DNA of 64,000 nt, from assembly GCA_964384725.1 (NCBI GenBank), contig CAYLLJ010000001.1:83093-147092 (forward strand), in the 5' to 3' direction. The notes below the pieces were generated by a model, which saw nothing but the letters and a program-made list of their open reading frames with translations, did not search any database and was not told the DNA's origin. Source of the stretch: an uncultured Oscillospiraceae bacterium (GTDB lineage Bacteria > Bacillota > Clostridia > Peptostreptococcales > Anaerovoracaceae). The position numbers and the translations under genes were made by a program. Below, in pieces: positions 5,782 to 51,708 of the stretch; the first letter of the stretch is position 1, and the number at the start of each line of letters is the position of its first letter.

Positions 5782-7359
5782 TTGAGAAATGCGTTGATTT
5801 TACAGTTTAAAGAAGCTATTGCTTCGTTACTGCCGATTATCATTATTGTTTTATTTCTTGACTTTACAGTAGTACCAATGCCATTTCACATTCGCAGCTC
5901 ATTTTTGATCGGTTCTCTGCTTTTAATTATAGGTATGGGTCTTTTCACTTTTGGGGCTGAAGTTGCTATGATTCCAATGGGAGAGCATATAGGAAGCCAG
6001 CTTACAAAATCTCGAAGTCTTCCTCTTTTAGTCGGAGTAAGCCTTGCAATGGGCACCATGGTCACCCTTGCCGAGCCTGATCTCCAAGTATTAGCAGGGC
6101 AAGTGCCCTCTATTCCGAAAGCGATTTTGATTGTAACCGTAGCGGTTGGAGTAGGTATATTTTTAGTTGTTTCTCTGCTGCGAATCCTTTTCCGATGGAA
6201 TTTGGCACATCTGCTAATTCTTATTTATCTGGCGGCGTTTGCAATCGGTGCCTTTACGTCTGAAACATACTTAGCAATAGCCTTTGATGCGGGCGGTGTC
6301 ACTACCGGCCCTATTACGGTCCCTTTTATTCTTGCATTAGGGATAGGTGTCTCTGCGGTTCACGGAAGTAAAAATTCTGATGACAGCTTCGGTCTGCTTG
6401 CCCTTTGTTCAGCAGGACCGGTGATTGCTGTAATCATTTTAGGGATATTTTTTGATTCATCCGGCACGGGAAGCATTTTCTATGCGGAGACGAAATATGT
6501 GGAAAATATAGCTGAGATATTTCAACTATTTAACAATAGCTTTCCTGTCTATCTTAAAGAAATCGTTATATCGCTTACGCCCATTGTCTTGTTTTTCTCA
6601 GTATTTCAGCTGATCTACTTAAAGCTTCCGAAAAGCCAGATAATAAAAATTATCGTCGGTATTATTTATACCGGTGCAGGGCTGATTCTTTTTCTTACGG
6701 GCGTTAATACCGGTTTTCTTCCGATGGGATTGTTTATCGGCGAATACCTGGGCGGAATCTCATATAACTGGATTCTGATACCGTTTGGCATGCTTGTGGG
6801 TTTTTTTATTGTAGCAGCAGAACCTGCAGTTCATGTTTTAAACAAGCAGGTAGAAGAGATTACGGGAGGTTCGATTTCTAAGAATGCAATGCTTTGGAGT
6901 TTATCCATAGGAGTTTCCATCTCAGTTGGCCTGGCCATGATTCGCGTGATTTACGGACTGAGTATCTGGTATTTTCTGTTCCCCTGCTACATTTTGGCAT
7001 TAATCTTAACCTTTTTTGTTCCCAAGGTATTCATAGCAGTCGCTTTTGACTCCGGAGGCGTGGCTTCGGGAACTATGACGGCAACATTTTTACTTCCCTT
7101 AGCAATAGGCACCTGTATAGCTGTAGGCGGCAATATAATGACAGACGCTTTTGGAATTATCGCAATGGTTGCGATGGCACCTTTAGTCACTATACAGGTT
7201 ATGGGATTGATATATAAGGTTAAGATCAGAAGTACGGAAGAAGAAGAAGAAGAAATTATCGATGACATTTCAGAGGAAATTGAGGATTATGCAAAACGTC
7301 CGGGAGGAGAAGATCTTGCCGGCGCCTCAGGTGATAATGAGTACGTGGATTTGGAATAA
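5782..7359 (+). CDS. DUF1538 multi-pass membrane protein (two internal repeats, acidic C-tail)
   Basis: Repeated AEPDL/AEPAV, FDAGGVTTGPITVPF/FDSGGVASGTMT and DSFG/DAFG motifs; very hydrophobic. Confidence 0.88.
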   Translation: MRNALILQFKEAIASLLPIIIIVLFLDFTVVPMPFHIRSSFLIGSLLLIIGMGLFTFGAEVAMIPMGEHIGSQLTKSRSLPLLVGVSLAMGTMVTLAEPDLQVLAGQVPSIPKAILIVTVAVGVGIFLVVSLLRILFRWNLAHLLILIYLAAFAIGAFTSETYLAIAFDAGGVTTGPITVPFILALGIGVSAVHGSKNSDDSFGLLALCSAGPVIAVIILGIFFDSSGTGSIFYAETKYVENIAEIFQLFNNSFPVYLKEIVISLTPIVLFFSVFQLIYLKLPKSQIIKIIVGIIYTGAGLILFLTGVNTGFLPMGLFIGEYLGGISYNWILIPFGMLVGFFIVAAEPAVHVLNKQVEEITGGSISKNAMLWSLSIGVSISVGLAMIRVIYGLSIWYFLFPCYILALILTFFVPKVFIAVAFDSGGVASGTMTATFLLPLAIGTCIAVGGNIMTDAFGIIAMVAMAPLVTIQVMGLIYKVKIRSTEEEEEEIIDDISEEIEDYAKRPGGEDLAGASGDNEYVDLE

Positions 7360-7412
7360 TCTTAGGGCATAATGCCGGACGATGAAGCAAAATGTTTAGA
7401 CGGGGAATTTTC

Positions 7413-9146
7413 ATGAAAAATCAATTTATTTTAAAAACAAAAGAATCTCTGGCATCTGTGCTGCCTATTACATTTATTGTCTTGCTTATCAATTTTACAA
7501 TAGCACCAATGCCTTTGGTCATTCGTGGTCTTTTTCTTTTAGGCGCTATACTGCTCATTTTGGGGATGGGTTTATTTACTTTGGGAGCGGATATGGCTCT
7601 GATGCCTATGGGTGAACAAATCGGTTCAGTCCTGACAAAGTCCAGGAAATTATATCTGCTTATAGGTGTTTCTCTGATAATGGGGATTATGGTAACGGTT
7701 GCAGAACCTGATCTTCAAGTCCTTGCTGAGCAGGTGCCTACAATCCCGAATCATATCATCATCCTTGCGGTTGCTGCAGGATTGGGTGTTTTTCTTGTTC
7801 TTGCGATACTTCGCATCATATTTCAATGGAGATTATCCTATTTACTGATTGGTTTATATATTGGCGTATTCATTTTAAGTGCTTTTGTTCCGGAAGATTT
7901 TGTCGCAGTTGCCTTTGGCGCCGGAGGGGTGGCAACGGGGCCGATTACTGTTCCATTTATTCTTGCCCTTGGGATTGGTATTTCTTCCGTTCGCGGAGGG
8001 AAAAGTTCTCATGATGACAGCTTCGGACTTATAGCCCTATGTTCTGTCGGGCCGATTTTGGCTGTAATGCTGCTTGGAATATTTTATGATACATCTCATA
8101 TTCAAACTGCTAAAAGCCTGCCTGATGCAAAAAATCTGCTTGATCTTTTCCGTTTATTCGGAGAAAGTTTCCCTGAATATTTTAAAGTGGTTGGATTAGC
8201 CCTTACGCCTATTGTCGGTTCTTTTACCCTGTTTCAGATCTTCGCCCTCAAACTGCCAAAAATTAAATTCGTCAAAATGATTATCGGCAGTATCTATACC
8301 TACCTTGGTCTGGTCTTATTCCTGACCGGAGTAAACGTAGGATTTCTCCCTGCCGGCAGCTTTATCGGTGCTTCTATAGGAGAACTTGATCACAATTGGA
8401 TTTTAATTCCTTTAGGGATGATCATGGGTTTCTCTATCGTTGCTGCGGAACCGGCAGTACATGTATTAAACGATGAGGTTGAAGAGATGACCGCAGGTGC
8501 GATCTCCAAAAATTCAATGCTATTGAGTTTATCTATCGGTGTTGCAATTTCTGTCGGGCTTGCCATGATTCAAGTCCTTACAGGAATAGATATTTTTTAT
8601 ATCCTGATACCCGGTTATATCATCGCTTTGGCGCTGACCTTTTTTGTGCCGAAAATATTTACAGCTATCGCTTTTGACTCGGGCGGTGTAGCTACCGGTC
8701 CTATGACCGTAGTGTTTCTTCTTCCTTTTACCATGGGTGCCTGCAAGGCAGTCGGCGGCAATATACTCCGTGATTCCTTCGGTATCGTAGCAATAGTTGC
8801 CATGGCGCCTCTTATCACGATACAGGTCATGGGCTTGATCTACGAAATAAAGAATAAATACACCAGCGAAGAAGAAGCGGAAGTATTAGAAGAAATTACC
8901 GGAGGAATGGAGGACAAAGAAATTGCAGCTTTGTATAACAGGCTTTTTGAGAAGCCGGAATCCTATCTGCGAACGGATGATTTTGGATATATTGATAATA
9001 AAAAAAGTAGTAGTGACCTTTTTGGGGAAAAGCATTATAATGATGTGACGAACGATAATGAATATATAAATTTTGAGGATTATGAAAAACTGGTACTGCC
9101 TGAGGATTTTGATTATACAGTAAAAAAGCCAGGAAATGAACGCTAA
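7413..9146 (+). CDS. DUF1538 multi-pass membrane protein, paralog 2
   Basis: Same motifs as the upstream gene (AEPDL, GGVATGPITVPF, DDSFGL, FDSGGVATGPMT); longer acidic tail. Confidence 0.88.
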   Translation: MKNQFILKTKESLASVLPITFIVLLINFTIAPMPLVIRGLFLLGAILLILGMGLFTLGADMALMPMGEQIGSVLTKSRKLYLLIGVSLIMGIMVTVAEPDLQVLAEQVPTIPNHIIILAVAAGLGVFLVLAILRIIFQWRLSYLLIGLYIGVFILSAFVPEDFVAVAFGAGGVATGPITVPFILALGIGISSVRGGKSSHDDSFGLIALCSVGPILAVMLLGIFYDTSHIQTAKSLPDAKNLLDLFRLFGESFPEYFKVVGLALTPIVGSFTLFQIFALKLPKIKFVKMIIGSIYTYLGLVLFLTGVNVGFLPAGSFIGASIGELDHNWILIPLGMIMGFSIVAAEPAVHVLNDEVEEMTAGAISKNSMLLSLSIGVAISVGLAMIQVLTGIDIFYILIPGYIIALALTFFVPKIFTAIAFDSGGVATGPMTVVFLLPFTMGACKAVGGNILRDSFGIVAIVAMAPLITIQVMGLIYEIKNKYTSEEEAEVLEEITGGMEDKEIAALYNRLFEKPESYLRTDDFGYIDNKKSSSDLFGEKHYNDVTNDNEYINFEDYEKLVLPEDFDYTVKKPGNER

Positions 9147-16028: not shown

Positions 16029-16052
16029 AAAATATACAATGGAGGATAAGGT

Positions 16053-17564
16053 TTAGCTCGTCAGGTCCCTGAATATTTCTTCCACCGTTTCCATTTTATT
16101 AGATCGGTAGGCATTGCTTCCTGCGAACACGAGTCCATTTTCGATATCGCCTTTTGCCGCATTAAGGAGTGCCTGCGTGATGCAATAGGGAGCTTCCTCA
16201 GCTTTGCACGGTATCAGGCAGCGATTGCATTTTTCCGGCGGGATTCTGCCCTTTTCCACCCTTTCGACAAAAGGAGTTTTTATTGCTCTTCCCGGCATGC
16301 CTACCGGGCTTTTAATCACAGCCATATCCTCTTTTGACGCTTTCAGGTAAGCCTCTTTGAATTTCGGATGGACATCGCACTCTTCAGTTGTCACAAAGCG
16401 TGTTCCCATCTGTACACCGTCAGCCCCGTAAGATAATGCCTTCTGCACATCTTCTTTCGTGTAGATCCCTCCTGCGACAATAAGAGGACAGCCGGGCAGA
16501 TCTTCGATCTCCTCTTTGATTTCCATGATCGTATCGTAAAAATGCTCTTGTGCCTCCTCTAACTGCTCTTCTTTAAACCCTAAATGTCCGCCTGCCATCG
16601 GGCCTTCATAAAGAATCGCATCGGGAACACGATTATATTTTTTTGACCAGTTTTTAATTATCAGTCCTGCAGCTCTCGCCGATGAAACAATGGGTACGAT
16701 CTTGACCTTGCTGTTCTTCACGTCTCCCGGCAGCGACATCGGTAAGCCGGCTCCTGAAATGATCATATCAACGCCTGCCTCAACTGCCGCTTCTACAAAC
16801 TCATCGTAATTTCTGCTGGCATACATTATGTTTACTGCGATCAATCCCTTGTTCGGGACATCTTTTATCGCCTCTTTCGCTTCACGAATATTCCTCTTCA
16901 AGGCGCGTATATTGGCATCCTTCGGTTTGCTGTAGAAATCCGGTTCCAGAAAACCGATCTGAGCGGCAGAAATCACTCCAACGCCTCCACATTTGACAAC
17001 GGCAGCTGAAAGCCTGGATAAGGAAACACCGATCCCCATTCCGCCTTGAAAGATCGGAACAGGAATTGTAACATCACCCAAAGTAAGAGGCATCAGCTTT
17101 AGTGGAGCACCTCCCTTAATCGTTTTGATTCTTTGTCTTTTGAAAAAATCCCTGATCGTTTCAAGAGACTGGAGCAATACAGCTTGTTCTTCATCATTGA
17201 GATCTGCAATCACGTCGCTAATCAAATTCCAATGAAATTCTTCATGCTCCCGTACTGCTTCTGCTCCTTCTTCTGTAAGCTCAATTTTCACTATCCTGCG
17301 ATCCTCCGGGATGCGGTGCCGATTGACATACTTTTTATCTACCAGTTTATTAATTGCGGTTGTCAAAGTACTTACGCTGATCTTTAAGCTTGCTGCGACC
17401 TGTGTCATGGTTTTAGCTTTGCCTTTCCCGATGGCCGCAAGAGTATGAGTTTCCGTAATTGAAAGATTGTGCCGTGATGAGTTCTTAATGGCATCTTCCT
17501 CAATCTTCAGAACGTTGTTAAACAGGTTTACCAATATATCATTTAATTTTTTTGTTGTTTCCAT
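16053..17564 (-). CDS. MarR (FabT-like) regulator fused to a nitronate-monooxygenase-family FMN/Fe-S enzyme (FabX/UfaA-like)
   Basis: ATG 17564 after AGGAGAAGG. About 150-aa MarR domain (LVNLFNNVLKIEE..LSITETHTL..STLTTAINKLVDKKYV.R...DRRIV.I.LT..G), then PIFQGGMGIGVS, SGAGLP, EGPMAGGHLG, GVQMGTRF, CNRCLIPC...YC. Confidence 0.88.
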   Translation of the reverse strand: METTKKLNDILVNLFNNVLKIEEDAIKNSSRHNLSITETHTLAAIGKGKAKTMTQVAASLKISVSTLTTAINKLVDKKYVNRHRIPEDRRIVKIELTEEGAEAVREHEEFHWNLISDVIADLNDEEQAVLLQSLETIRDFFKRQRIKTIKGGAPLKLMPLTLGDVTIPVPIFQGGMGIGVSLSRLSAAVVKCGGVGVISAAQIGFLEPDFYSKPKDANIRALKRNIREAKEAIKDVPNKGLIAVNIMYASRNYDEFVEAAVEAGVDMIISGAGLPMSLPGDVKNSKVKIVPIVSSARAAGLIIKNWSKKYNRVPDAILYEGPMAGGHLGFKEEQLEEAQEHFYDTIMEIKEEIEDLPGCPLIVAGGIYTKEDVQKALSYGADGVQMGTRFVTTEECDVHPKFKEAYLKASKEDMAVIKSPVGMPGRAIKTPFVERVEKGRIPPEKCNRCLIPCKAEEAPYCITQALLNAAKGDIENGLVFAGSNAYRSNKMETVEEIFRDLTS

Positions 17565-17577
17565 GAACCTTCTCCTA

Positions 17578-18003
17578 TTAACCAATCGCAAACAGGATCT
17601 CGCACTGACAAGCAATTTTATCTCCCAGATATGCTGTGGCTTTCCCGCTACCCGCCTTCGATCTGATACGATCCAGGACAACTTCAAGGCGAAGCGTGTC
17701 CCCGGGGACTACTTTTTGACGAAATTTTGCATTTTTAATGCCTCCAAAATATGCAATTTTTCCACGATGCTCTTCCATGGACAAAATTGCTACAGTTCCG
17801 GCTTGAGCCAGAGATTCTATTATAAGAACGCCGGGCATTACTTTTTCCTGAGGGAAATGCCCCCGGAAATAGTATTCATCCTCGCGAACATATTTCATAG
17901 CAACAATACGCTTTCCCTCTTCTATTTCAACAACTTCGTCGATTAGCAGAAAAGGATCTCTATGCGGTATTATTTCTTTGATCTGTTCAATATTTAAAAT
18001 CAC
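17578..18003 (-). CDS. fabZ: 3-hydroxyacyl-ACP dehydratase
   Basis: IPHRDPFLLID, FRGHFP..VMPGVLIIESLAQ; GTG start overlaps the fabF stop (GTGA). Confidence 0.96.
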   Translation of the reverse strand: MILNIEQIKEIIPHRDPFLLIDEVVEIEEGKRIVAMKYVREDEYYFRGHFPQEKVMPGVLIIESLAQAGTVAILSMEEHRGKIAYFGGIKNAKFRQKVVPGDTLRLEVVLDRIRSKAGSGKATAYLGDKIACQCEILFAIG

Positions 18004-19232
18004 TTTTGCGCCCCCTTTAACAGCAGACATCCATTGTGGCCGCCAAATCCGAGAGAATTTGACATTGCATAGTTGAGAGCCTGCTTTCTTGCTGTACCCG
18101 GAACATAATCCAAATCCATCTCTTCATCAGGAACTAAAAGATTTATAGTCGGCGGAATTACTCCATCCAGCAAAGCATTAATGCAAACAATTGCCTCCAC
18201 TACACCGGCCGCGCCTAATAGATGCCCCGTCATGCTCTTGGTGGAACTGACCGGGATCTTGTACGCCGCATCTCCGAATACTTTTTTTATAGCTCTTGTC
18301 TCAAACAGATCGTTGTATGGAGTTCCCGTTCCGTGTGCATTTATATAAGAAACCTCTTCAGGTTTGATTCCTGCTTCCTGAATGGCAAGTTCCATCGCCT
18401 TTGCGGCACCGGTACCTTCCGGTGACGGCATCGTTATATGATAAGCGTCGCATGTTGTCCCGTAACCCGCAATCTCAGCATATATCTTAGCTCCTCTTGC
18501 GACGGCATGCTCATATTCTTCAAGTATCACAATGCCCGCACCTTCTCCCATGACAAAGCCGTCTCTTTCCTTGTCGAATGGCGTGGAGCATCTGTTTGGA
18601 TCCTCCCTCGTAGATAAAGCTGTCATATTTGCAAATCCCGAAAAGCAAACCGGTGCGAAAGATGCTTCCGATGCACCGGCAACCACTGCGTCAGTATAAC
18701 CATGCTTAATGGACCGATACGCCTCACCTATTGCATGGGTCCCTGTCGCACATGCTGTAACTATGCCCAGGCAGCTGCCTGTTGCTTTGCATGCTATAGC
18801 TATATTACCCGCTAAAATATTCCCGATAACAGAAGTGACCAGAAACGGGGATACCCTCGTGATACCCTTTTCCATAGCCTTCTGCACTTCATTTTCCAGC
18901 GTCATGACTCCACCGATCCCGGAACCTACCAATACGCTTAATTTTTCTGCCTCTATATTTTCTCCGCTTACAAGCCCGCTGTCCGCCATGGCTTCCAGTG
19001 CTGCTGTTACTCCGTATTGAGAGTAAAGGTCGCTTCTTCTTGCTTCTTTTTTGTCATGGAATACAAAATCCTTTACTTCTGCTCCATTTTTAGCTTTTTG
19101 TAGTTCCGGGTCAAAATGGGTAATCCTGGCGATACCATTTTTACCTGCCTTGATTCCCTCCCAAAAGTCCTTCACATTATTTCCCAGGGGCGTTACCGCT
19201 CCCATCCCTGTAATAACTACCCTTCTATTCAT
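18000..19232 (-). CDS. fabF: Beta-ketoacyl-ACP synthase II
   Basis: RRVVITGMG, TACATG, YINAHGTGT, KSMTGHLLGAAG, NSLGFGGHN. Confidence 0.97.
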   Translation of the reverse strand: MNRRVVITGMGAVTPLGNNVKDFWEGIKAGKNGIARITHFDPELQKAKNGAEVKDFVFHDKKEARRSDLYSQYGVTAALEAMADSGLVSGENIEAEKLSVLVGSGIGGVMTLENEVQKAMEKGITRVSPFLVTSVIGNILAGNIAIACKATGSCLGIVTACATGTHAIGEAYRSIKHGYTDAVVAGASEASFAPVCFSGFANMTALSTREDPNRCSTPFDKERDGFVMGEGAGIVILEEYEHAVARGAKIYAEIAGYGTTCDAYHITMPSPEGTGAAKAMELAIQEAGIKPEEVSYINAHGTGTPYNDLFETRAIKKVFGDAAYKIPVSSTKSMTGHLLGAAGVVEAIVCINALLDGVIPPTINLLVPDEEMDLDYVPGTARKQALNYAMSNSLGFGGHNGCLLLKGAQK

Positions 19233-19249: not shown

Positions 19250-19999
19250 TCAGATGGACATTCCGCCATCGACTCCTAAAATCTGCCCTGTTATATATGC
19301 AGCTTGATCAGAAGCCAAAAATGCTACCGCATTAGCAACATCCGAGGTCTTACCGGCACGCCCGAGACTTATAGCTTCCGTCATTGATTTTTTTTGTTCC
19401 TCTGTTAATATCTCTGTCATATCTGTTTCTATAAACCCGGGAGCCACCGCATTGACAGTGATGCCTCTTTTCCCAAGCTCTTTAGCGGCGGACAATGTCA
19501 TTCCTATGACTCCTGCCTTTGATGCACTATAATTAACCTGCCCTGCATTTCCGCGAATTCCGACGATGGAGGAAATGTTGATAATTCTTCCATGCTTCTG
19601 CTTGATCATAAACGGTGCTGCTGCCCGAAGAAAGTAAAAACTGCCGTTCAAGTTTGCCTGAACAACATCGTTAAAGTCGGATGCCGTCATTCTCATTATT
19701 AATTTATCTTTAGTAATTCCCGCATTATTTACCAGTATATCTATCTTGCCGAAAACTTCGACTGCCAATTTGGCTGCAGCCTCACCATGAGTAGGATCTG
19801 AAATGTCTCCTTTGATCACTTCCACACGTGTTCCGTATTGTTTCAGCTCTTCTGCTGTTTTTTTTGCTGCTTCTTCATTGCTGCGGTAACAAAGAAGTAC
19901 ATCAGCTCCCTGTCTGCAGAACTCCTCAGCGATTGCTCTGCCGATTCCTCTGACACCGCCGGTTATCACTGCGCTTTTTCCTTTAAGCATCTTAGTCAC
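19250..19999 (-). CDS. fabG: 3-oxoacyl-ACP reductase
   Basis: TGGVRGIG, NNAGIT, NYSASKAG, VAPGFIETDMT. Confidence 0.96.
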   Translation of the reverse strand: MTKMLKGKSAVITGGVRGIGRAIAEEFCRQGADVLLCYRSNEEAAKKTAEELKQYGTRVEVIKGDISDPTHGEAAAKLAVEVFGKIDILVNNAGITKDKLIMRMTASDFNDVVQANLNGSFYFLRAAAPFMIKQKHGRIINISSIVGIRGNAGQVNYSASKAGVIGMTLSAAKELGKRGITVNAVAPGFIETDMTEILTEEQKKSMTEAISLGRAGKTSDVANAVAFLASDQAAYITGQILGVDGGMSI

Positions 20000-20028: not shown

Positions 20029-21033
20029 TTATTTTGTTTCTTCTTCGGAGATTAAATTTTTTATAGTATCCATTGTCTCCATCAATGTATCATTATCTTC
20101 AATATTCATCACGGTCAGTTCGCTGTTGATTTTTCGTGCAAGACCGGATAAGGTTTTTCCCGGTCCGAACTCAATAAATATGCTGATTCCGTCTGCTTTC
20201 ATATTTTCTATTGTTTCTTGCCAATAAACAGATCTTTCAGCTTGTTGTGCCATTACCTGTGCCAACCACTGGCTATCCTCAACGACCTGCCCTTCCATGA
20301 TGTCTTTGCCTGTTACGTTGGAATAAGTCTTTACAGTTGGTCTTTTTAAATCTGCATCAAGCAATATTTTTAGCAGTTTCGGAACAGCCGGCTTCATCAT
20401 TGATGAATGGAATGCGGTTCCAACACTCAGCGGAACAGTCTTGATGCCTCCAACCTCTTTAGATTTTAATATAAATCGCTGCTGGGCATCCTTATCTCCG
20501 GCTACGACCGTCTGAATGGGGGAGTTAAAGTTCACACCTTCAAGAATGCCATCTTCCCTTGCAGCTTCTACACATTCAAGAATGATTTTTCGTTCTCCGA
20601 AAGCAGCAATCATACCGCCAATATTCTCTCCTTGTGCATTCTTTCCGGCATCACCCATCCAGATGCCTCTGTTTCTGACGATTTCCAAGCCTGTTTCAAA
20701 GCTTTGGATCGCGCCTCCCGCTGTGAGCGCCGCATATTCTCCCAGGCTGAATCCTGCCATTCCTTCTATTTCAATTCTGCTCAAAATTTCTTCATCAAGA
20801 CCGGAAAGCTCTTTTAAAAAAGCTTCATATGCCGCCATGGTTACCGTATACACGCAAGGCTGTGTGATGTTGGTCTGCCTGAGCAGTTCCTTTGATCCCT
20901 CAAAGCACCATTGCTGTATATCCCGGCCTGCCAGATCAAAGATCTTTTTCGCCTCTTTTGAATTGTCATAAAGACTTTTACCCATTCCTGGGTATTGAGC
21001 CCCTTGACCTGCAAATAATAGCCCTACTTTCAT
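20029..21033 (-). CDS. fabD: Malonyl-CoA:ACP transacylase
   Basis: FAGQGAQYPGMG, TQP, AGFSLGEY, AFHS, EFGPGKTLSGL. Confidence 0.95.
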   Translation of the reverse strand: MKVGLLFAGQGAQYPGMGKSLYDNSKEAKKIFDLAGRDIQQWCFEGSKELLRQTNITQPCVYTVTMAAYEAFLKELSGLDEEILSRIEIEGMAGFSLGEYAALTAGGAIQSFETGLEIVRNRGIWMGDAGKNAQGENIGGMIAAFGERKIILECVEAAREDGILEGVNFNSPIQTVVAGDKDAQQRFILKSKEVGGIKTVPLSVGTAFHSSMMKPAVPKLLKILLDADLKRPTVKTYSNVTGKDIMEGQVVEDSQWLAQVMAQQAERSVYWQETIENMKADGISIFIEFGPGKTLSGLARKINSELTVMNIEDNDTLMETMDTIKNLISEEETK

Positions 21034-21943
21034 AGATCTCCTCTGCCTCCTCAAACATTTCTACTATAATTTCCCTTGCTGTCTGTTCCTTCTTTACAAG
21101 GCCGGCAATTTGGCCGGACATTACAGATCCGTACACAACATCACCGTCTTTAACTGCTGCCCGCAGCGCTCCCGTTCCGATTTTTTCTATCTCTGAAATA
21201 TCTGCGTTTCTTTTTTCCAAAATCAAAATATCTCTTGCCAGTTTATTTTTTAGCACTCTTACAGGATGTCCTGTACTGCGCCCGGTAGCCACAGTATCCG
21301 AATCCTTTGCTTTTAAGATCATATCTTTGTAATTCTGTGATACGGTGCATTCTTTCGCAACAAGAAAACGTGTTCCGACTTGAACACCGGATGCTCCGAG
21401 CATATATGCTGCAGCAATCCCTCGACCGTCAGCAATACCCCCTGCTGCTATAACAGGGATGTTTACCGCATCTGCCACTTGAGGAACAAGTGCCATAGTT
21501 GTGGCTTCCCCGATGTGTCCGCCTCCCTCCTGGCCTTCAGCAATAACTGCATCCGCGCCGGCACGCTCTACTCTGATTGCAAGCGCTACCGATGCGATGA
21601 CGGGAATCACCTTTATCCCGTGGCTTTTTAACTTTGTTATATATTTACCGGGGTTCCCTGCTCCTGTAGTAACTACAGGAACATGTTCCTCACAAATAAC
21701 ATCAATGATTGCGTCAGCATGTGGATTCAGCAGCATCACATTTACGCCGAAAGGCTTATCAGTCATTTCTCTCGTCTTACGGATCTCTTTTCTCACCCAG
21801 TCTGCTTCTGCATTCCCGCTTGCTATTATACCTAAACCTCCCGCATTGCTAACTGCAGATGCCAGATATGCATCCGCAATCCATGCCATTGCTCCCTGTA
21901 TAATGGGATATTCCGTTCCGAGCATTCCACAAATATTAACCAT
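20978..21943 (-). CDS. fabK: Enoyl-ACP reductase II
   Basis: PIIQGAMAW, TTGAGNP, EGQEGGGHIG, AAGGIADGRG, VMSGQIAG; located in the fab operon. Confidence 0.95.
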   Translation of the reverse strand: MVNICGMLGTEYPIIQGAMAWIADAYLASAVSNAGGLGIIASGNAEADWVRKEIRKTREMTDKPFGVNVMLLNPHADAIIDVICEEHVPVVTTGAGNPGKYITKLKSHGIKVIPVIASVALAIRVERAGADAVIAEGQEGGGHIGEATTMALVPQVADAVNIPVIAAGGIADGRGIAAAYMLGASGVQVGTRFLVAKECTVSQNYKDMILKAKDSDTVATGRSTGHPVRVLKNKLARDILILEKRNADISEIEKIGTGALRAAVKDGDVVYGSVMSGQIAGLVKKEQTAREIIVEMFEEAEEIYESRAIICRSRGSIPRNG

Positions 21944-21993: not shown

Positions 21994-22959
21994 CTACACT
22001 GCTTCAAATAGTATCGCTCCGGCACTCAGCCCGCCGCCAAATCCGACCATCATTATTATATCCCCTGAACTAACCTTTCCGCTTTTCATTAAATCTGCCA
22101 ATGCCATCGGAATGCTTGCCGATGATACATTGCCGGTAGTCTGAATGTTCACCTGAAATTTTTCAAGGGGTTGTTTCATGCGCTGAGCAGCAGATTGAAT
22201 AATTCTCTTATTCGCCTGATGAGGTACATAATATTTTACATCATTTGCTGTGATCCCAGCCTTTTGCAGTACAATGTCCATGGCTTCGCCGATAGCACCT
22301 ACTGCGAATCGAAAAACCTGTGACCCGTTCATATGAAGGAACTGCTCTTTCGGGTCATCATCCGCAAACGGGGTTTTCAGGTATTGCATGTCTGCGGTAA
22401 GGCTGTTTGATATATCATCATAGTTCTTTATGAAACTGCTCATTATACCGGTTTTGTCATCTCTAAGCTCTAAGACCGCGCTTCCGGCTCCATCGCCGAA
22501 AATAATACATGTCCCTCTGTCCTCCCAGTTCGTGATTCTGGAGAGACGCTCTACTCCGATTACCAATGCACGCTTTATCCCATGTGTCCTCATAAGCGCT
22601 TCTGCATTCCAAACTCCATATATAAATCCGCTGCACGCTGCATTTAAATCGTAAGCAATTGCATTCTCTAAATTCATAGCTCTTTTCACTAATGCTCCCA
22701 TTGACGGCACCAGCATATCCGGTGTAACGGTAGCTACAATGACCAACCCGATAGAGTTTTTGTCCAAATCCCCCATGGCCTCTTTTGCTGAATTTACAGC
22801 AAGATCCAATGCTGATTCTTTTGTTGCTATATGCCTTGATTCAATTCCCGTACGGTCTATGATCCATTGATTATCCGTTTCAACCAATTTTGAAAGACGT
22901 GTGTTATCTACTTTTAATTCCGGCAATGACTTGCCGGTTCCTATAATAACTACTCCCAA
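21994..22959 (-). CDS. fabH: Beta-ketoacyl-ACP synthase III
   Basis: WIIDRTGI..R, AACSGF, FGDGAG, PHQAN, GNVSSASIP, GFGGGL; TTG start 22959 after GAGGAGG. Confidence 0.95.
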   Translation of the reverse strand: MGVVIIGTGKSLPELKVDNTRLSKLVETDNQWIIDRTGIESRHIATKESALDLAVNSAKEAMGDLDKNSIGLVIVATVTPDMLVPSMGALVKRAMNLENAIAYDLNAACSGFIYGVWNAEALMRTHGIKRALVIGVERLSRITNWEDRGTCIIFGDGAGSAVLELRDDKTGIMSSFIKNYDDISNSLTADMQYLKTPFADDDPKEQFLHMNGSQVFRFAVGAIGEAMDIVLQKAGITANDVKYYVPHQANKRIIQSAAQRMKQPLEKFQVNIQTTGNVSSASIPMALADLMKSGKVSSGDIIMMVGFGGGLSAGAILFEAV

Positions 22960-23092: not shown

Positions 23093-23109
23093 ATTTTGAT
23101 AGTCAAACT
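23093..23109 (-). promoter_or_regulatory. FabT-type operator
   Basis: AGTTTGACTATCAAAAT on the minus strand (TTTGA-N3-TCAAA palindrome), just downstream of the fab promoter; resembles the streptococcal FabT box. Confidence 0.75.
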
Positions 23110-23119
23110 ATTTGATTGT

Positions 23120-23148
23120 ATTATAAATTTTACGGATATGCATGTCAA
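23120..23148 (-). promoter_or_regulatory. Sigma-A promoter of the fab operon
   Basis: TTGACA (23148-23143), 17 bp, TATAAT (23125-23120): perfect consensus. Confidence 0.85.
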
Positions 23149-35097: not shown

Positions 35098-35297
35098 CTC
35101 TCTTCAGCTCCTCTCTCATAAATACTCTTAACATCGTATTATACATTTTCCCGGTCTATTTTTCCAGTACTATTTCAAATCAGCTTGTTCAATTTAAACG
35201 ATTTCAAAATTTTGACAGGCGCTGCACGCTGCGGTATAATTAGAGCAATAATATTTTGGCTTCAAGAAACCCTATGATTTCGAAAGGAGTATACAGT

Positions 35298-36776
35298 ATG
35301 TTCTCGAGCGATAAAATATGGATTGGAAAAGGCTCAGTTCCGGTTTACCTTCTGCCTCAAATGGCAAATCGGCATGGTCTGATCGCAGGAGCTACCGGAA
35401 CAGGAAAAACCGTAACACTTAAAGTATTGGCTGAATCTTTCAGTGAATTAGGCGTACCTGTTTTCTTGGCTGATATCAAAGGCGACCTGGCCGGTTTGGC
35501 TGTTCAGGGGGAGCCCAATCCCAAAACAGAAGAACGCGTCTCCCAATTAGCCGTTGACGGCTTTTCTTATGAATCCTTTCCTGTTCAATTTTGGGATCTG
35601 TTCGGTCAGAGCGGACACCCGATCCGTACTACAATATCAGAAATGGGGTCGCTGCTGCTTTCAAGAATTCTCAATCTGAACGAAACACAAAGAGGCGTAT
35701 TGAATATCATATTTCGAATAGCCGATGACAAAGGCTTGCTTCTGCTTGATTTAAAGGATTTAAAGTCCATGCTTAGATATGTGGGAGAGAACAGTAAGGA
35801 GTACACTTTAGCCTATGGAAATATATCCAAGCAAACTATAGGAGCAATACAAAGAAGTCTTCTATCGTTGGAAGATCAAGGCGGAGAGCTCTTTTTCGGT
35901 GAACCGGAATTGGATTTCTTTGATTGGATGAAAACATCACACGACGGCAGAGGCGTTATTAATATACTGCACAGTGTCCAACTGTATCAAACTCCTTCCC
36001 TTTATTCTACCTTTTTGCTCTGGATGCTTTCCGAGCTTTTTGAATTACTGCCGGAAGCCGGAGACTTGAAGCAGCCAAAGATGGTATTTTTCTTCGACGA
36101 AGCACATCTCCTCTTTGCCCATGCGCCTAAGTCTTTGCTGGAAAAGATTGAACAGGTGGTCAGGCTGATTCGTTCCAAGGGGGTCGGGGTATACTTTATC
36201 ACTCAGAATCCAATGGACCTGCCCCAGAATGTATTGAGCCAGTTAGGAAACCGCATTCAGCATGCGCTTCGCGCTTATACTCCGGCTGAAATCAAAAACG
36301 TTGAAGCTGCTGCGGAATCATTCCGGCCGAATCCGGATTTTGATACTAAGACAGCAATAATCGAACTTGCAACCGGCGAAGCCCTGATTTCCTGTCTGGA
36401 TGAAAAAGGTCGCCCGGGCATTGTTGAGCGCGCTTTTATTCTGCCTCCGCAGAGCCGATTCGGAACAATCGACGATGCTTTAAGAAGGCAGATAATAACT
36501 TCATCGCCTATGAACGGCAAATATGAGCGGGAGCAGGATCGCATATCAGCCTTCGAGCAGCTTTCGGATATGGAGCGGGCAGAAGAAAATGCGGCTATGC
36601 AGGCGGCTGAAGATAAAAGAAGAATGACAGGCGCCGAATCGAAAGGAAGAGCTTCAAATCGGGGTTATTCGCGTCAGACTCCAATGGAAAAAGCGACAAA
36701 TGCCGTATTCAGCACTATCGGCAGAGAGGTTGGCAGGACTTTGATTCGAGGGATCTTAGGGTCACTGAAAAAATAA
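35298..36776 (+). CDS. DUF853 HerA-like ATPase (YjgR family)
   Basis: [42 protein letters not shown]. Confidence 0.92.
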
Positions 36777-44875: not shown

Positions 44876-46777
44876 CTATCTAAAGTTAAAATAGTTTACT
44901 ATTTTCATTTCGCCTTCGACCGGTTCTAAATAATAAATCCAGTTATAATTTATATCTCTGATTTTTCCGGCCTCAGTGATTTGCATCTCCTCATATACCC
45001 AGACATAAAAGCCGTTTGAGCCCTTTCGAATCTCACCGATTTCAAGCAGCTTAAATGTTTCTTTCACTTTTCCGACTTTTGAAAAACCCTCTGCTCTCTG
45101 ATAAGCCTTGCTGTCCTTTTTTAATAAATCAAACACACTTTTATTTCTAATGTTTACATAGTCGATCCATTGCGAATCAAAGGCAATAATTGTTCCAACT
45201 ATGGATTGGTCATAGTATATAGTTTCTGATCCCTCAGGTGTCTGCCATATGTTATTTTCAATAGGTTTCGAATTGTTGATATCTGAAAGGCCGTAATCCT
45301 TTCCTTGCTGATAAGCAAGTGCTTCGTTGGATCGCACTGCAGCTATATTTTTATTATTGCCCATTTGCGATGTAATTAGTGCGTTTTTATCCGCTGCCGG
45401 TTTTGGGTCCGGTTTCGCTATGACTTCCGGCGAGTCTTCAGTTTCATTATTCCTGGCATCACTTTCGTTATCTTTATCAATTGCTTCCGGCGTTTTTTCG
45501 GTGTCTATGTTTTTATCTGCATTGTCCTCACCGCTCAGCCATCCTGTTACAGTCCCGATAACCTGTGTCTGTACTTTATTTATGGAATCCGAGATGGCGC
45601 TATTCGGTGCAAAGTATCGGATTCCAAGTATTGCTATTTCGGCAATCAATATTATTGCAATAATGATAAGAATAATTCTGCCGGCATGATGGCCTTTTTG
45701 CTCCTGTTCGTCTGCTATATCCTTATCTTCTGCTCCAAAGAAAAGAGGGTTTAGCTCCGTCTCAGTCTTATTTGGTTCGATTTCAGGTCCTTCTATTACG
45801 GACTCAAGTTCTGTGAATTCAGTCTCGGGTTTTATGACTGCTGGCTCGGGCTCAATAGCCTCAGATTTTGCGGTTTCTGTTTCCGGTTCTGTCATTTCCA
45901 TATCCGGTTCAACGGTTCTTGTTTCCGGTTCTGCTATTTCAGTATCGGGTTCTGTGACTAATGTCTCGGGCTCTGCCGTTGTAGGGTCTGCGATTACTGT
46001 CTTCGGTTCTGTAACATCAGTTTCGGATTCTGTGATTTCTGTTTCCGGTTCAATAACATCAGTTTCGGATTCTGTGATTTCTGTTTCCGGTTCGGTAATA
46101 TCAATCGCAGGTTCTGCTATTTCAGTCTCGGGTTCAATATCGTTAACCGCCATACCGGAATGCTGTCTTTTCATTCTTTCATATTCTCTATCCAGCAGTT
46201 CCTGAAATTCTTCATTTTTCTTGTTAAATGTAAAGAAGCGGTCAATATCAGACCCTACGCTTTGGTCTGATCCATCTTGAATTTTCTTAAATAAAGTTTC
46301 TTCAAGCGTCTGATCTTTATCTGATTTCTCTTCCGGCTGGCTATAGTCTTCAAGCTTCCAGTTAAATTCTATATCTTCCGTTTTCCTTGGTTTGGGAAAA
46401 TCATAAACATTCCATTTGAATTCAATTTCATTTGCTGTGTCCGGCTGGCCGGCAGCATCGTCTTGTTCGCTAATAGCTTTTTTTTCTTTTGTTTGTTCTT
46501 CTGTGTCGCTTATGTAATTAAAAACCGGGGCCTTCATGCCTGTTTCCGGATCTTCTGAAGTCTTTTTTTCGGGTTGTTCTTCAGTATAAAAAAATTTGTT
46601 GTTTCCCGCCCCCTTAATCGGAGGATTGTAAACCACTTCTTCTGTTGCCGTTTCCTTGGGTTCCTTGGGTTTGTCAAAAGGCTGGGGTCCTGTGGGTTCA
46701 CCGCATCTCTGACAGTATTTATCTGTATCGCCAAGTAAATTGCCGCAAATTCTACAATACATACCGCGATCCTCCAA
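44876..46777 (-). CDS. Zinc-ribbon, acidic-repeat, single-pass membrane protein
   Basis: N-terminal CxxCG...CxxCG, long E/T/P-rich region, TM IILIIIAIILIAEIAILGI, C-terminal globular domain. Confidence 0.8.
   Translation of the reverse strand: MEDRGMYCRICGNLLGDTDKYCQRCGEPTGPQPFDKPKEPKETATEEVVYNPPIKGAGNNKFFYTEEQPEKKTSEDPETGMKAPVFNYISDTEEQTKEKKAISEQDDAAGQPDTANEIEFKWNVYDFPKPRKTEDIEFNWKLEDYSQPEEKSDKDQTLEETLFKKIQDGSDQSVGSDIDRFFTFNKKNEEFQELLDREYERMKRQHSGMAVNDIEPETEIAEPAIDITEPETEITESETDVIEPETEITESETDVTEPKTVIADPTTAEPETLVTEPDTEIAEPETRTVEPDMEMTEPETETAKSEAIEPEPAVIKPETEFTELESVIEGPEIEPNKTETELNPLFFGAEDKDIADEQEQKGHHAGRIILIIIAIILIAEIAILGIRYFAPNSAISDSINKVQTQVIGTVTGWLSGEDNADKNIDTEKTPEAIDKDNESDARNNETEDSPEVIAKPDPKPAADKNALITSQMGNNKNIAAVRSNEALAYQQGKDYGLSDINNSKPIENNIWQTPEGSETIYYDQSIVGTIIAFDSQWIDYVNIRNKSVFDLLKKDSKAYQRAEGFSKVGKVKETFKLLEIGEIRKGSNGFYVWVYEEMQITEAGKIRDINYNWIYYLEPVEGEMKIVNYFNFR
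45754..46143 (-). repeat. Intragenic 21-bp (7-aa EPETEIT-like) tandem repeats
   Basis: Degenerate heptads, including an exact 40-nt duplication at 46012-46051 and 46054-46093 (42-nt period). Confidence 0.85.
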
Positions 46778-49752: not shown

Positions 49753-51708
49753 TTAAACTTCTAAAGCTGCTCTGCGCCCGTCAGCAACCGCTTCAAAAAT
49801 CTTACCGACCTTTTTAGCATCGCCGATCACCTTGTATGGAATTCCCATCTTTTCAAGATCCTCGGCTAAAGGGTTATAAGAATCGGTTCCGATTGCCGAG
49901 ATAACCGTATCGACACCATCTAAGGAAAGCTCTCTGCCAACACAATCACAGACTATCTTGTTTTCAGTGACATCGACTACTTTGGTTTGTGTATGAATTT
50001 CAATACCTTTTTCCTTCAAGCGGGTAATCAAATAATCACGAGCAGGAGTTAAATCTTCGGTCGCAATATTATTCAGCATTTCTACAATTGTTACTTTGCG
50101 TCCGCCTAAAGTACGAAAATCATGGGCATCCGCCAGGAAATCTGCGGTTTCACATCCAACAGACCCGCCACCGATTATAACTATGTTTTGTCCGGCTGGT
50201 TTTTCGCTTCTCAAGGCCTCCCAAGCAGTCATAACATTTTTATGGCTGCTGCCGCTGAGCCATTTGGGTAGAATCGGTTTGCCGCCTGTTGCCAGAACAA
50301 CAAAATCAGCATTCATTTTTTTAATATCTTGAATTGTTGCAGCATGACCGACTATCACTTTAGCATCGGTTTTCTTCAACTCATTGATTAAAAACTTTAC
50401 CCCGCTTGCAAATTCCTGTTTTACCGGAGGATAGCTTGCTAAGATAAACTGACCGCCTAATTTATTAGATGCTTCCATTAGGGTAACATCATGCCCCCGT
50501 TCAGCTAACACTCTTGCTGCTTCCAGTCCGCCGGGTCCGCCGCCGACGACCAGTACTTTTTTCTTTACCGAAGCCGGATGAATGTCGTTCAAAACGACTT
50601 GGCCTACTGCAGGATTTATAGCACAGCGAATGGAATTGCCTATTAAAGATTGACCGAAGCATGTCAAACAGCCAATACAAGGACGGATATCGTCTTCACG
50701 GCCTTCTTTTGCCTTATTAGGCAACTCGGGATCACACATTATTGCACGACCCATATAGACGAAGTCCATCTTTCCGGTTTCGATCAGCATATCTGCTATC
50801 CAAGGTTCTTTAATACGTCCGGGGCAGCCAACAGGTATTGATACTGCGCGTTTGATTTCTTCTATATATGGAGCATTTATTGCTGTGGGTTTTCCGGTAG
50901 GAGGCAGCAATGTTCCTGAATCAAACAAGGAGCCGTTTGAAAAATCAAGATAGTCAACACCCGCCTTTTCCAGCAGTCTTGCAACATAGATATTGTCGAT
51001 CAGACGGTTGGAGCCAGGCTCCATTTCATCTGCAGACAGGCGTACACTGACAGGAAAATCCTCACCTACTTCTTTACGCACGGCCTCAACTACTTCAAGC
51101 AATATACGGACACGTCCGTTAATATCGCCGCCGTATTCGTCCGTACGCTTGTTCATGGTCGGAGACAAGAAATTGCCAAGCAAACCATGAGTATGAGCAC
51201 AGTGAATCTCTACTGAATCACAGCCTGCTTCTTTTGCCCGGCGAGCTGCATCTTTGTACTTTTGCACATATTCGGCAATATCTTCATGGGTCATTTCTAT
51301 AGGGACATCACCGCGGTTCCAAATGTGCGGAATCGGCGAGGCCGCTAACGGCATAACGCCGCTTATTGCAGAAGACGCAAAAGCGCCTGCTTGAATCAAT
51401 TGGGCTGAAACCTTTGCACCATGACGGTGTACAGCTTCAGTGATGCGAAAAAGACCTGCTGCAGTCTCATCATCATAAATACCGAACATCTTTGGCATGT
51501 ATCGACGGAGCCCGTCGATATCGCAAGCCTCGATTGTAATCAGTCCTGCGCCTCCCTTAGCCATATTTTCGTAATAACAAACCATTTCATCGGTTACTTC
51601 GCTTTTGTCTGATGCTTGATTAGAATGCATGGGAGGTACAAAGATACGATTACGCACCTCCATGTTTCGAAAACGGATAGGTTTAAACAAACTTGGATAC
51701 TTCGTCAT
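49753..51708 (-). CDS. NADH:flavin oxidoreductase (OYE TIM barrel + Fe-S + FAD/NAD domain; 2,4-dienoyl-CoA reductase/BaiCD-like fold)
   Basis: NRIFVPPM, FLSP..NKRTDEYGG, CIGCLTC..C, VVGGGPGGLEAA, IIGGGSVGCE. Confidence 0.9.
   Translation of the reverse strand: MTKYPSLFKPIRFRNMEVRNRIFVPPMHSNQASDKSEVTDEMVCYYENMAKGGAGLITIEACDIDGLRRYMPKMFGIYDDETAAGLFRITEAVHRHGAKVSAQLIQAGAFASSAISGVMPLAASPIPHIWNRGDVPIEMTHEDIAEYVQKYKDAARRAKEAGCDSVEIHCAHTHGLLGNFLSPTMNKRTDEYGGDINGRVRILLEVVEAVRKEVGEDFPVSVRLSADEMEPGSNRLIDNIYVARLLEKAGVDYLDFSNGSLFDSGTLLPPTGKPTAINAPYIEEIKRAVSIPVGCPGRIKEPWIADMLIETGKMDFVYMGRAIMCDPELPNKAKEGREDDIRPCIGCLTCFGQSLIGNSIRCAINPAVGQVVLNDIHPASVKKKVLVVGGGPGGLEAARVLAERGHDVTLMEASNKLGGQFILASYPPVKQEFASGVKFLINELKKTDAKVIVGHAATIQDIKKMNADFVVLATGGKPILPKWLSGSSHKNVMTAWEALRSEKPAGQNIVIIGGGSVGCETADFLADAHDFRTLGGRKVTIVEMLNNIATEDLTPARDYLITRLKEKGIEIHTQTKVVDVTENKIVCDCVGRELSLDGVDTVISAIGTDSYNPLAEDLEKMGIPYKVIGDAKKVGKIFEAVADGRRAALEV

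Follow-up and report, generated by a model that had tools for sequence, protein, structure and literature searches.

To our knowledge, the bacterial repressors of fatty-acid synthesis FabT, FapR, FabR and FadR are all separate proteins. FabT is described as a dimer for which acyl-ACP acts as co-repressor (PMC9083066). For FabX of Helicobacter pylori it was shown that the active site histidine and the iron-sulfur cluster are required for activity and that R164 is required for ACP binding. The enzyme prefers C8-C10 substrates, forms a 1:1 complex with ACP and uses O2 as acceptor, and its Fe-S subdomain occupies the place of the NAD(P)H site of FabK, the cluster being surface-near and sensitive to oxygen and ROS (PMC8626469). 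A FabX homolog of Neisseria functions anaerobically in unsaturated fatty-acid synthesis (PMC11300592), and in F. nucleatum overexpression of fabX partly offsets the effect of a FabK inhibitor; FabT and FabX are treated separately in that article (PMC11091888). For clostridia, no dedicated unsaturated-fatty-acid enzyme was known in 2009 according to PMC2700279. In other pathways, enzyme and regulator can be one protein: archaeal RbkR combines a MarR-family winged helix-turn-helix domain with a riboflavin kinase, the enzyme being also the sensor, and BirA, NadR and PutA are named as trigger enzymes (PMC5397151). In the searchable literature, in which subscription journals are thinly covered, neither a FabT-FabX or MarR-NMO fusion nor a MarR domain fused to a nitronate monooxygenase domain was found described. 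The one article that names both Anaerovoracaceae and FabT has the latter solely in a cited reference. Such a protein is encoded in the window, i.e., the whole stretch of 64,000 nucleotides that was analysed.

A fused reading frame at the end of a fab operon

The fabT::fabX fusion gene (16053..17564, minus strand) is a single open reading frame of 503 amino acids with its ATG at 17564 and its stop codon at 16053, and its translation contains no internal stop. The ATG lies 13 nt past the stop codon of fabZ and is directly preceded by the Shine-Dalgarno-like sequence AGGAGAAGG. Pfam places a MarR domain at residues 34-92 and an NMO domain at residues 166-502. An earlier note, made from the letters of this DNA, had described one 503-residue frame with MarR and NMO-superfamily domains, on which Pfam, NCBIfam and the ORF translation agree; the motifs it quoted are present, the cysteines being C446, C449, C453 and C461 (C-x2-C-x3-C-x7-C). 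The frame is composed of a FabT-like MarR winged-helix domain (17121..17564, minus strand; residues 1-148, domain about 5-141), a short linker (17100..17120, minus strand; residues about 149-155), which is constant in length, variable in sequence and devoid of a conserved start codon, and a FabX-like FMN TIM barrel with a [4Fe-4S] subdomain (16056..17099, minus strand; residues 156-503, domain about 156-502).

Contigs from two further runs match this region without gaps: one of 41.5 kb spans 16029-17700 and shows 93 substitutions, and one from a third run bridges the fusion junction (16879-17180) and shows 3. The frame is uninterrupted in 16 of 18 genomes of the same genus; of the other two, one has the fusion cut at two contig ends, and the other, 81% complete, yields only a stand-alone FabX-like match. 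A stop codon or indel at the junction, which the earlier note had named as evidence against a fusion, occurs neither on the independent contigs nor in these 16 genomes. The fusion is confirmed as an observation. Assembly error as its source was rejected, since the junction is gap-free on independent contigs and the frame is kept in 60 relatives. A conserved start codon or ribosome site for an internal start at the junction was not found in the 52 of these 60 loci examined. An AlphaFold model based on 117 fused homologs reached a pLDDT of 89.1 and a pTM of 0.73 with lower confidence at residues 141-160; this pTM and the low linker confidence leave the predicted packing of the domains open. When a complex of the FabX-like domain and two MarR domains was predicted, the score was 0.03 (mark 0.32), which speaks neither for nor against such an assembly.

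The fusion closes a fab operon on the minus strand, which starts with fabH (21994..22959), read from a TTG start behind a ribosome site. It is followed by fabK (20978..21943), a canonical enoyl-ACP reductase gene whose product scores 502.5 bits with TIGR03151 (cut-off 453.1), fabD (20029..21033), assigned by a Pfam/NCBIfam-type domain scan, fabG (19250..19999) and fabF (18000..19232), both named from the translation alone, and fabZ (17578..18003), the sole FabA/FabZ-family gene found in the genome. The order fabH-fabK-fabD-fabG-fabF-fabZ-fusion is the one given in the earlier note, which also named the separate canonical FabK. FabA was not found in this genome, which is 89% complete and in which one FabZ was found, and a simple scan detected no terminator 3' of the fusion on the minus strand. 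The operon contains neither an acp nor an acc gene. One stand-alone ACP is encoded elsewhere in the genome; its gene (L111:1492-2512, G000 C6) lies apart from the fab operon and directly 5' of a Rex-like gene, and a matrix scan of the genome gave no strong FabT box there.

Further genes of the 64-kb window were observed in passing. A long OYE-type Fe-S flavoenzyme (49753-51708, minus strand) resembles BaiCD and long bilirubin reductase and stays under their cut-offs, and two tandem genes (5782-9146, plus strand) each contain two stretches like the UmpA/UmpB antiporters, again under the cut-offs. A 633-residue protein (44876-46777, minus strand) has an N-terminal cysteine motif, a long acidic repeat tract rich in Glu, Pro and Thr and one hydrophobic segment, and matches no NCBIfam family at 1e-10. 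The sole match of a 506-residue protein (35256-36776, plus strand) is a weak one to the ATPase CedD.

The two halves and the predicted operator

The N-terminal half was read as FabT-like in the earlier note, and both family and structure searches agree. The best regulator model is the NCBIfam FabT model NF050133 (125.4 bits, E 1.9e-36, over residues 8-142), whose equivalog cut-off of 200 bits is not reached, and the best structure is FabT, PDB 6jbx (E 1.5e-24 over residues 5-141; next MarR 8e-10). T68, R82, D88 and R90 are invariant in all fusions in which the enzyme half is intact (31/31) and in all that have lost both catalytic histidine and cluster cysteines (28/28), termed dead in the following. 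The FabT half also retains H107 and H111, like unfused FabTs.

Upstream of fabH, a sigma-A-type promoter, TTGACA-17-TATAAT (23120..23148, minus strand), matches the consensus at 12/12 positions. It is followed at about +5 to +21 by a palindrome, the predicted FabT-type operator AGTTTGACTATCAAAAT (23093..23109, minus strand), which differs by 2 mismatches each from the S. pyogenes box ANTTTGATTATCAAATT (bioRxiv 10.1101/2023.06.07.543851) and the S. pneumoniae box ANTTTGACTGTNAAATT (PMC8406281). Of the 59 fused loci with the operon head in view, 52 carry a site there that deviates from the symmetric form by at most two mismatches (27/30 intact, 24/27 dead, 1/2 lacking the histidine only). In the 602,119 nt making up the rest of the fused loci there is one such site, 5' of an AMP-binding gene that heads its fab operon. 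The palindrome noted earlier is present, and box match and recurrence support its assignment to the FabT type. A matrix built from the fused-locus sites returned one strong site in the genome of the window (24.1 bits; next 15.5), so that within this 89%-complete genome the scan gave no second strong site of a wider regulon.

For the enzyme half, the best solved relative is H. pylori FabX with 256 bits and about 37% identity, versus at most 96 bits for FabK entries, and the top five Foldseek matches of the AlphaFold model are FabX. A FabK identity was considered and rejected: the fusion scores 148.5 bits with the FabK model TIGR03151 and does not pass the cut-off of 453.1, the Fe-S cysteines are present, and a true FabK is encoded in the operon. 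Together with H327 and the four cysteines, this agrees with the assignment in the earlier note as FabX-like and not FabK. FabX residues were mapped by hand on a FabX alignment, with the numbering of PMC8626469. H182, E175 and S273 of FabX correspond to H327, E320 and S419, and C300, C304, C308 and C320 to C446, C449, C453 and C461, the cluster ligands predicted from sequence. The ACP-docking positions K152, K159, R164, R160, T130 and I156 correspond to R297, K304, K309, N305, M276 and L301; of these, three basic residues are kept (R297, K304, K309) and two positions differ. The histidine, serine, glutamate and four cysteines are kept in 31/31 intact fusions, a clade with the complete set of cluster ligands and the majority of FMN contacts. 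Compared with the nearest relative, dN/dS is 0.041 for the enzyme half and 0.12 for the MarR half, in an analysis for which the dS filter left no more than 9 pairs.

Distribution, origin and loss of catalytic residues

Residues 1-150 were searched against proteins of 276-881 aa, resulting in 138 matches. All of the best 120 of these combine MarR and NMO, and 117 of the best 120 are 470-540 aa long. The matches listed include Anaerovorax odorimutans, Sinanaerobacter chloroacetimidivorans, Aminipila and Anaerovoracaceae, the family label being taken from the source names of the matches; with A. odorimutans and S. chloroacetimidivorans, cultured carriers exist. Within the family, a FabT-like match is present in 163 of 401 genomes, and among the 150 of these 163 matches listed 74 have frames of at least 470 aa. 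Of these 74 loci, 60 were compared as fused loci, together with 20 unfused ones. All 60 fused loci are single ORFs, distributed over 21 Anaerovoracaceae genus codes, and in 59 of the 60 the fusion is the last fab gene, behind fabZ. A class-wide sample of which 400 genomes were scored contains, apart from the genome of the window, 61 FabT-like matches; no fused frame occurs among them and none exceeds 208 aa. Within this sampling, the fusion is conserved in and restricted to the family. The search for the MarR+NMO architecture across genomes, which the earlier note had proposed, hence returned a conserved fusion, and its concern that relatives might all keep two separate genes does not hold, with 60 fused loci versus three split ones.

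In these three family genomes (L091, L092, L095), fabZ, fabT and fabX are separate and adjacent. A FastTree phylogeny of five fab genes with 75 rows places the split three, with support 99, as the sister group of a single clade (99) that unites 59 fused rows, and the FabT tree agrees with this placement. In a 74-row tree of the FabX domain the split pairs are nested inside the fused rows (support 95), and in a 45-row FabX tree, which left out 25 long-branch fused rows and 4 FabK rows, all 36 fused rows fall on one side (99.6). Secondary fission of the split pairs was rejected, because only the 74-row FabX tree hints at it and the FabT, five-gene and 45-row trees disagree. We read the trees as suggesting a single fusion origin from adjacent fabT and fabX genes, with a surviving split sister lineage. 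The terminal position of fabT is older than the fusion; unfused near relatives already carry fabT last. Of 78 loci with a stand-alone fabX in other bacteria, 10 have a fabT-like match close downstream, in reverse order. The stand-alone FabX-like proteins are intact in 78/78 cases, a control that is biased because these proteins were picked as the top matches of an intact query.

Among 61 fusions, 31 keep the histidine and the four cysteines, 28 have lost both and 2 have lost the histidine only. In the double-loss proteins the histidine is replaced by Tyr, Leu, Gln, Thr or Met and the cluster loop is deleted. As 27 double-loss rows form one clade in the five-gene fab tree (support 100), the count amounts to one main event and two losses of the histidine only. 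The dead proteins keep the DNA-wing residues and much of the ACP helix, i.e., R297 and W306 in 28/28, K309 in 27/28 and a basic residue at position 304 in 26/28, and the ACP-contact columns are modestly more conserved in this clade than average (0.69 vs 0.60). A second FabX-like match (E 1e-35) was found in none of the 30 genomes with a His-less fusion (81-99% complete) and in 8 of 30 with an intact one. A MarR domain is carried by 118 of the best 120 matches to the dead domain; of the two MarR-less ones, one is probably a fragment at a contig edge and the other belongs to a fused locus called from an internal start, so that no free-standing dead domain was found among these best 120. Two close dead pairs have dN/dS values of 0.027 and 0.19, and two further dead pairs values of 0.25 and 0.61, near saturation. 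That the dead domain persists together with its ACP helix and the operator, with no second fabX found, suggests a role other than catalysis, likely the sensing of acyl-ACP.

The loci show further variation. Among the fused loci (L053-L090), the operon head lacks fabH in 18 of 27 double-loss fusions, where the labelled fab genes begin with fabK, and in 1 of 30 intact ones, kin in these counts not being independent. In two loci (L071:7409-9049, L072:38-1678) an AMP-binding, acyl-CoA synthetase-like gene occupies the place of fabH, in L071 with a FabT box 5' of it. In L049 (6020-7269) fabF is split over two frames, L051 has an operon without fabF, and L078 is a dead fusion without a surrounding fab operon. 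L083 has Gln for the histidine with four cysteines kept, possibly an intermediate in catalytic loss. L068 and L085 form a divergent fused pair. Their FMN motifs are altered, Asp being present in both GGMG and GG, and their operators are weak; the four cysteines are retained in both proteins, and L085 has lost the histidine.

Proposed mechanism, alternatives and known systems

The locus has the architecture of a trigger enzyme, i.e., a DNA-binding domain joined to an enzyme of the regulated pathway and an operator in front of the pathway genes. We propose, with about an even chance of being right, that the fusion acts as a repressor and enzyme of this type, which would repress the fab operon, perform FabX chemistry and have its repression tuned by acyl-ACP. 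The MarR halves would dimerise on the palindrome behind the promoter and block transcription start of the fab operon; since the fusion would repress its own operon, enzyme and repressor would be tied 1:1. The FabX half would convert mid-chain acyl-ACP to the cis-3 precursor of unsaturated fatty acids with an anaerobic acceptor, and the acyl-ACP-binding C-terminal domain would act as a built-in sensor tuning repression. In the derived dead clade catalysis would have been lost and sensing would be what retains the domain; acyl-ACP bound to the C-terminal half would explain why the domain outlives catalysis. The earlier note had proposed that an acyl-ACP-processing or redox-sensing domain directly controls repression; the 28 relatives with a dead domain under the same operator lend this indirect support. 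Against the proposal speaks that R164 of FabX is K and R160 is N in the aligned fusion, and that H. pylori FabX is described to need O2 (PMC8626469), which is absent for a strict anaerobe. Further points against it are that the dead clade amounts to one main loss event and that its ACP contacts exceed average conservation by little, as well as the retained FabT histidines, the box in the unfused sister and the result on interface residues given below. A more far-reaching version appears to us somewhat less probable than this proposal. In it, FabX is active without oxygen, senses mid-chain acyl-ACP where saturated and unsaturated synthesis diverge and directly switches its own FabT domain, which would make the fusion the first case of a trigger enzyme in type II fatty-acid synthesis; the family would then preserve the path from adjacent genes via a fusion with both functions to a pseudoenzyme that is a sensor only.

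Alternatively, the two domains might be tethered and otherwise independent, the FabT half repressing via its own acyl-ACP pocket and the FabX half catalysing alone, with a fixed 1:1 ratio under negative feedback as the gain and the dead domain as a structural or solubility partner. We regard this as rather unlikely, yet ahead of the other alternatives. The sister lineage with adjacent split fabT and fabX genes has the same operon and, in 2/3 loci, the box, from which it follows that fusion is not needed for regulation, and the FabT half with its H107 and H111 may sense acyl-ACP without help. Furthermore, the linker is variable and low in confidence, and 12 positions are common to intact and dead fusions and rare in stand-alone FabX, but fusion-specific interface residues absent from the three unfused sister proteins were not found except P214 and G387, because most of the 12 positions also occur in these sisters. 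However, an inert appendage of 330 aa could be removed by one stop codon, and it is nevertheless in frame with its basic ACP helix in 28/28 dead fusions, and the low dN/dS values of the two close dead pairs likewise argue against a mere partner. The next alternative is a redox, oxygen or iron sensor in which the state of the FMN or of the surface-near [4Fe-4S] cluster would switch DNA binding and tie fatty-acid synthesis to redox.

We judge such a sensor improbable. The cluster ligands, none of which is missing in the intact clade, the FMN contacts, most of which are kept there, and the reported oxygen/ROS sensitivity of the cluster (PMC8626469) are in line with it, but catalysis fully accounts for retention of the cluster, and the cluster loop is gone in 28 of 61 still-fused proteins, of which 24/27 have the operator; with the loop lost and the fusion retained in the dead clade, redox sensing is the weaker of the two options of the earlier note, the other being acyl-ACP. 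It is still less probable that the repressor holds and the C-terminal chemistry differs, the domain being a back-up enoyl-ACP reductase, an isomerase only or a generic flavin oxidoreductase. The moderate identity to H. pylori FabX, the effect of F. nucleatum fabX on FabK inhibition (PMC11091888), the fact that O2 is unavailable to the host and that no assay of a clostridial FabX was found in the literature covered leave some room for this. The TIGR03151 score far under its cut-off, the true FabK in the same operon, the Fe-S subdomain in place of the NAD(P)H site of FabK and the anaerobic activity of the Neisseria homolog (PMC11300592) argue for FabX chemistry instead. Finally, there is very little probability that the fusion is only apparent, due to a sequencing slip or to an internal start yielding mainly the separate enzyme. 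A purine-rich stretch lies 5' of M158 in the window, and for the fused relative P0126 one source gives a product of 349 aa that begins at an internal Met; however, that stretch is 16 nt from the ATG, the linker has different start candidates in different loci and none in several of the 52 examined, and the frame is kept on independent contigs and in 60 relatives.

With the trigger-enzyme proposal, a likely pathway enzyme bearing a repressor would extend the trigger-enzyme class by a protein-borne ligand and an Fe-S flavoenzyme. Moreover, split genes, intact fusion and dead fusion form a natural series for testing the change from enzyme to sensor, and the family offers a handle on O2-free unsaturated fatty-acid synthesis in clostridia and on the anaerobic electron acceptor of FabX-type enzymes.

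Compared with known systems, the fusion shares with FabT of Streptococcus, Enterococcus and Lactococcus (PDB 6jbx; PMC9083066; PMC8406281; bioRxiv 10.1101/2023.06.07.543851) the full-length MarR winged helix, the location in a fab cluster and the palindromic box. It differs by the additional enzyme domain of about 350 aa, resulting in 503 aa instead of a stand-alone protein of about 145 aa, by its place as last operon gene, by a score under the NCBIfam cut-off and by a single strong site in the genome. With H. pylori FabX (PDB 7e1q; PMC8626469) it has in common the NMO-family barrel, the catalytic histidine, the equivalents of E175 and S273, four cysteines and the basic ACP-docking helix, whereas the cysteine spacing is x2-x3-x7 instead of x3-x3-x11, R164 and R160 are changed to K and N, the protein is fused to a repressor in an anaerobic host, and a large sister clade of fusions lacks the catalytic residues. 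FabK belongs to the same superfamily with FMN barrel and catalytic histidine, but the fusion is far below the FabK cut-off, has an Fe-S subdomain and stands beside a true FabK in its operon. The closest architecture is archaeal RbkR, in which an N-terminal MarR-family winged helix-turn-helix domain is likewise fused to a pathway enzyme and the operator precedes the pathway genes (PMC5397151). In contrast to RbkR, BirA, NadR and PutA, the pathway of the fusion is type II fatty-acid synthesis, the predicted ligand is the protein-borne acyl-ACP, the enzyme is a predicted Fe-S flavoenzyme, and the dual function is a proposed one.
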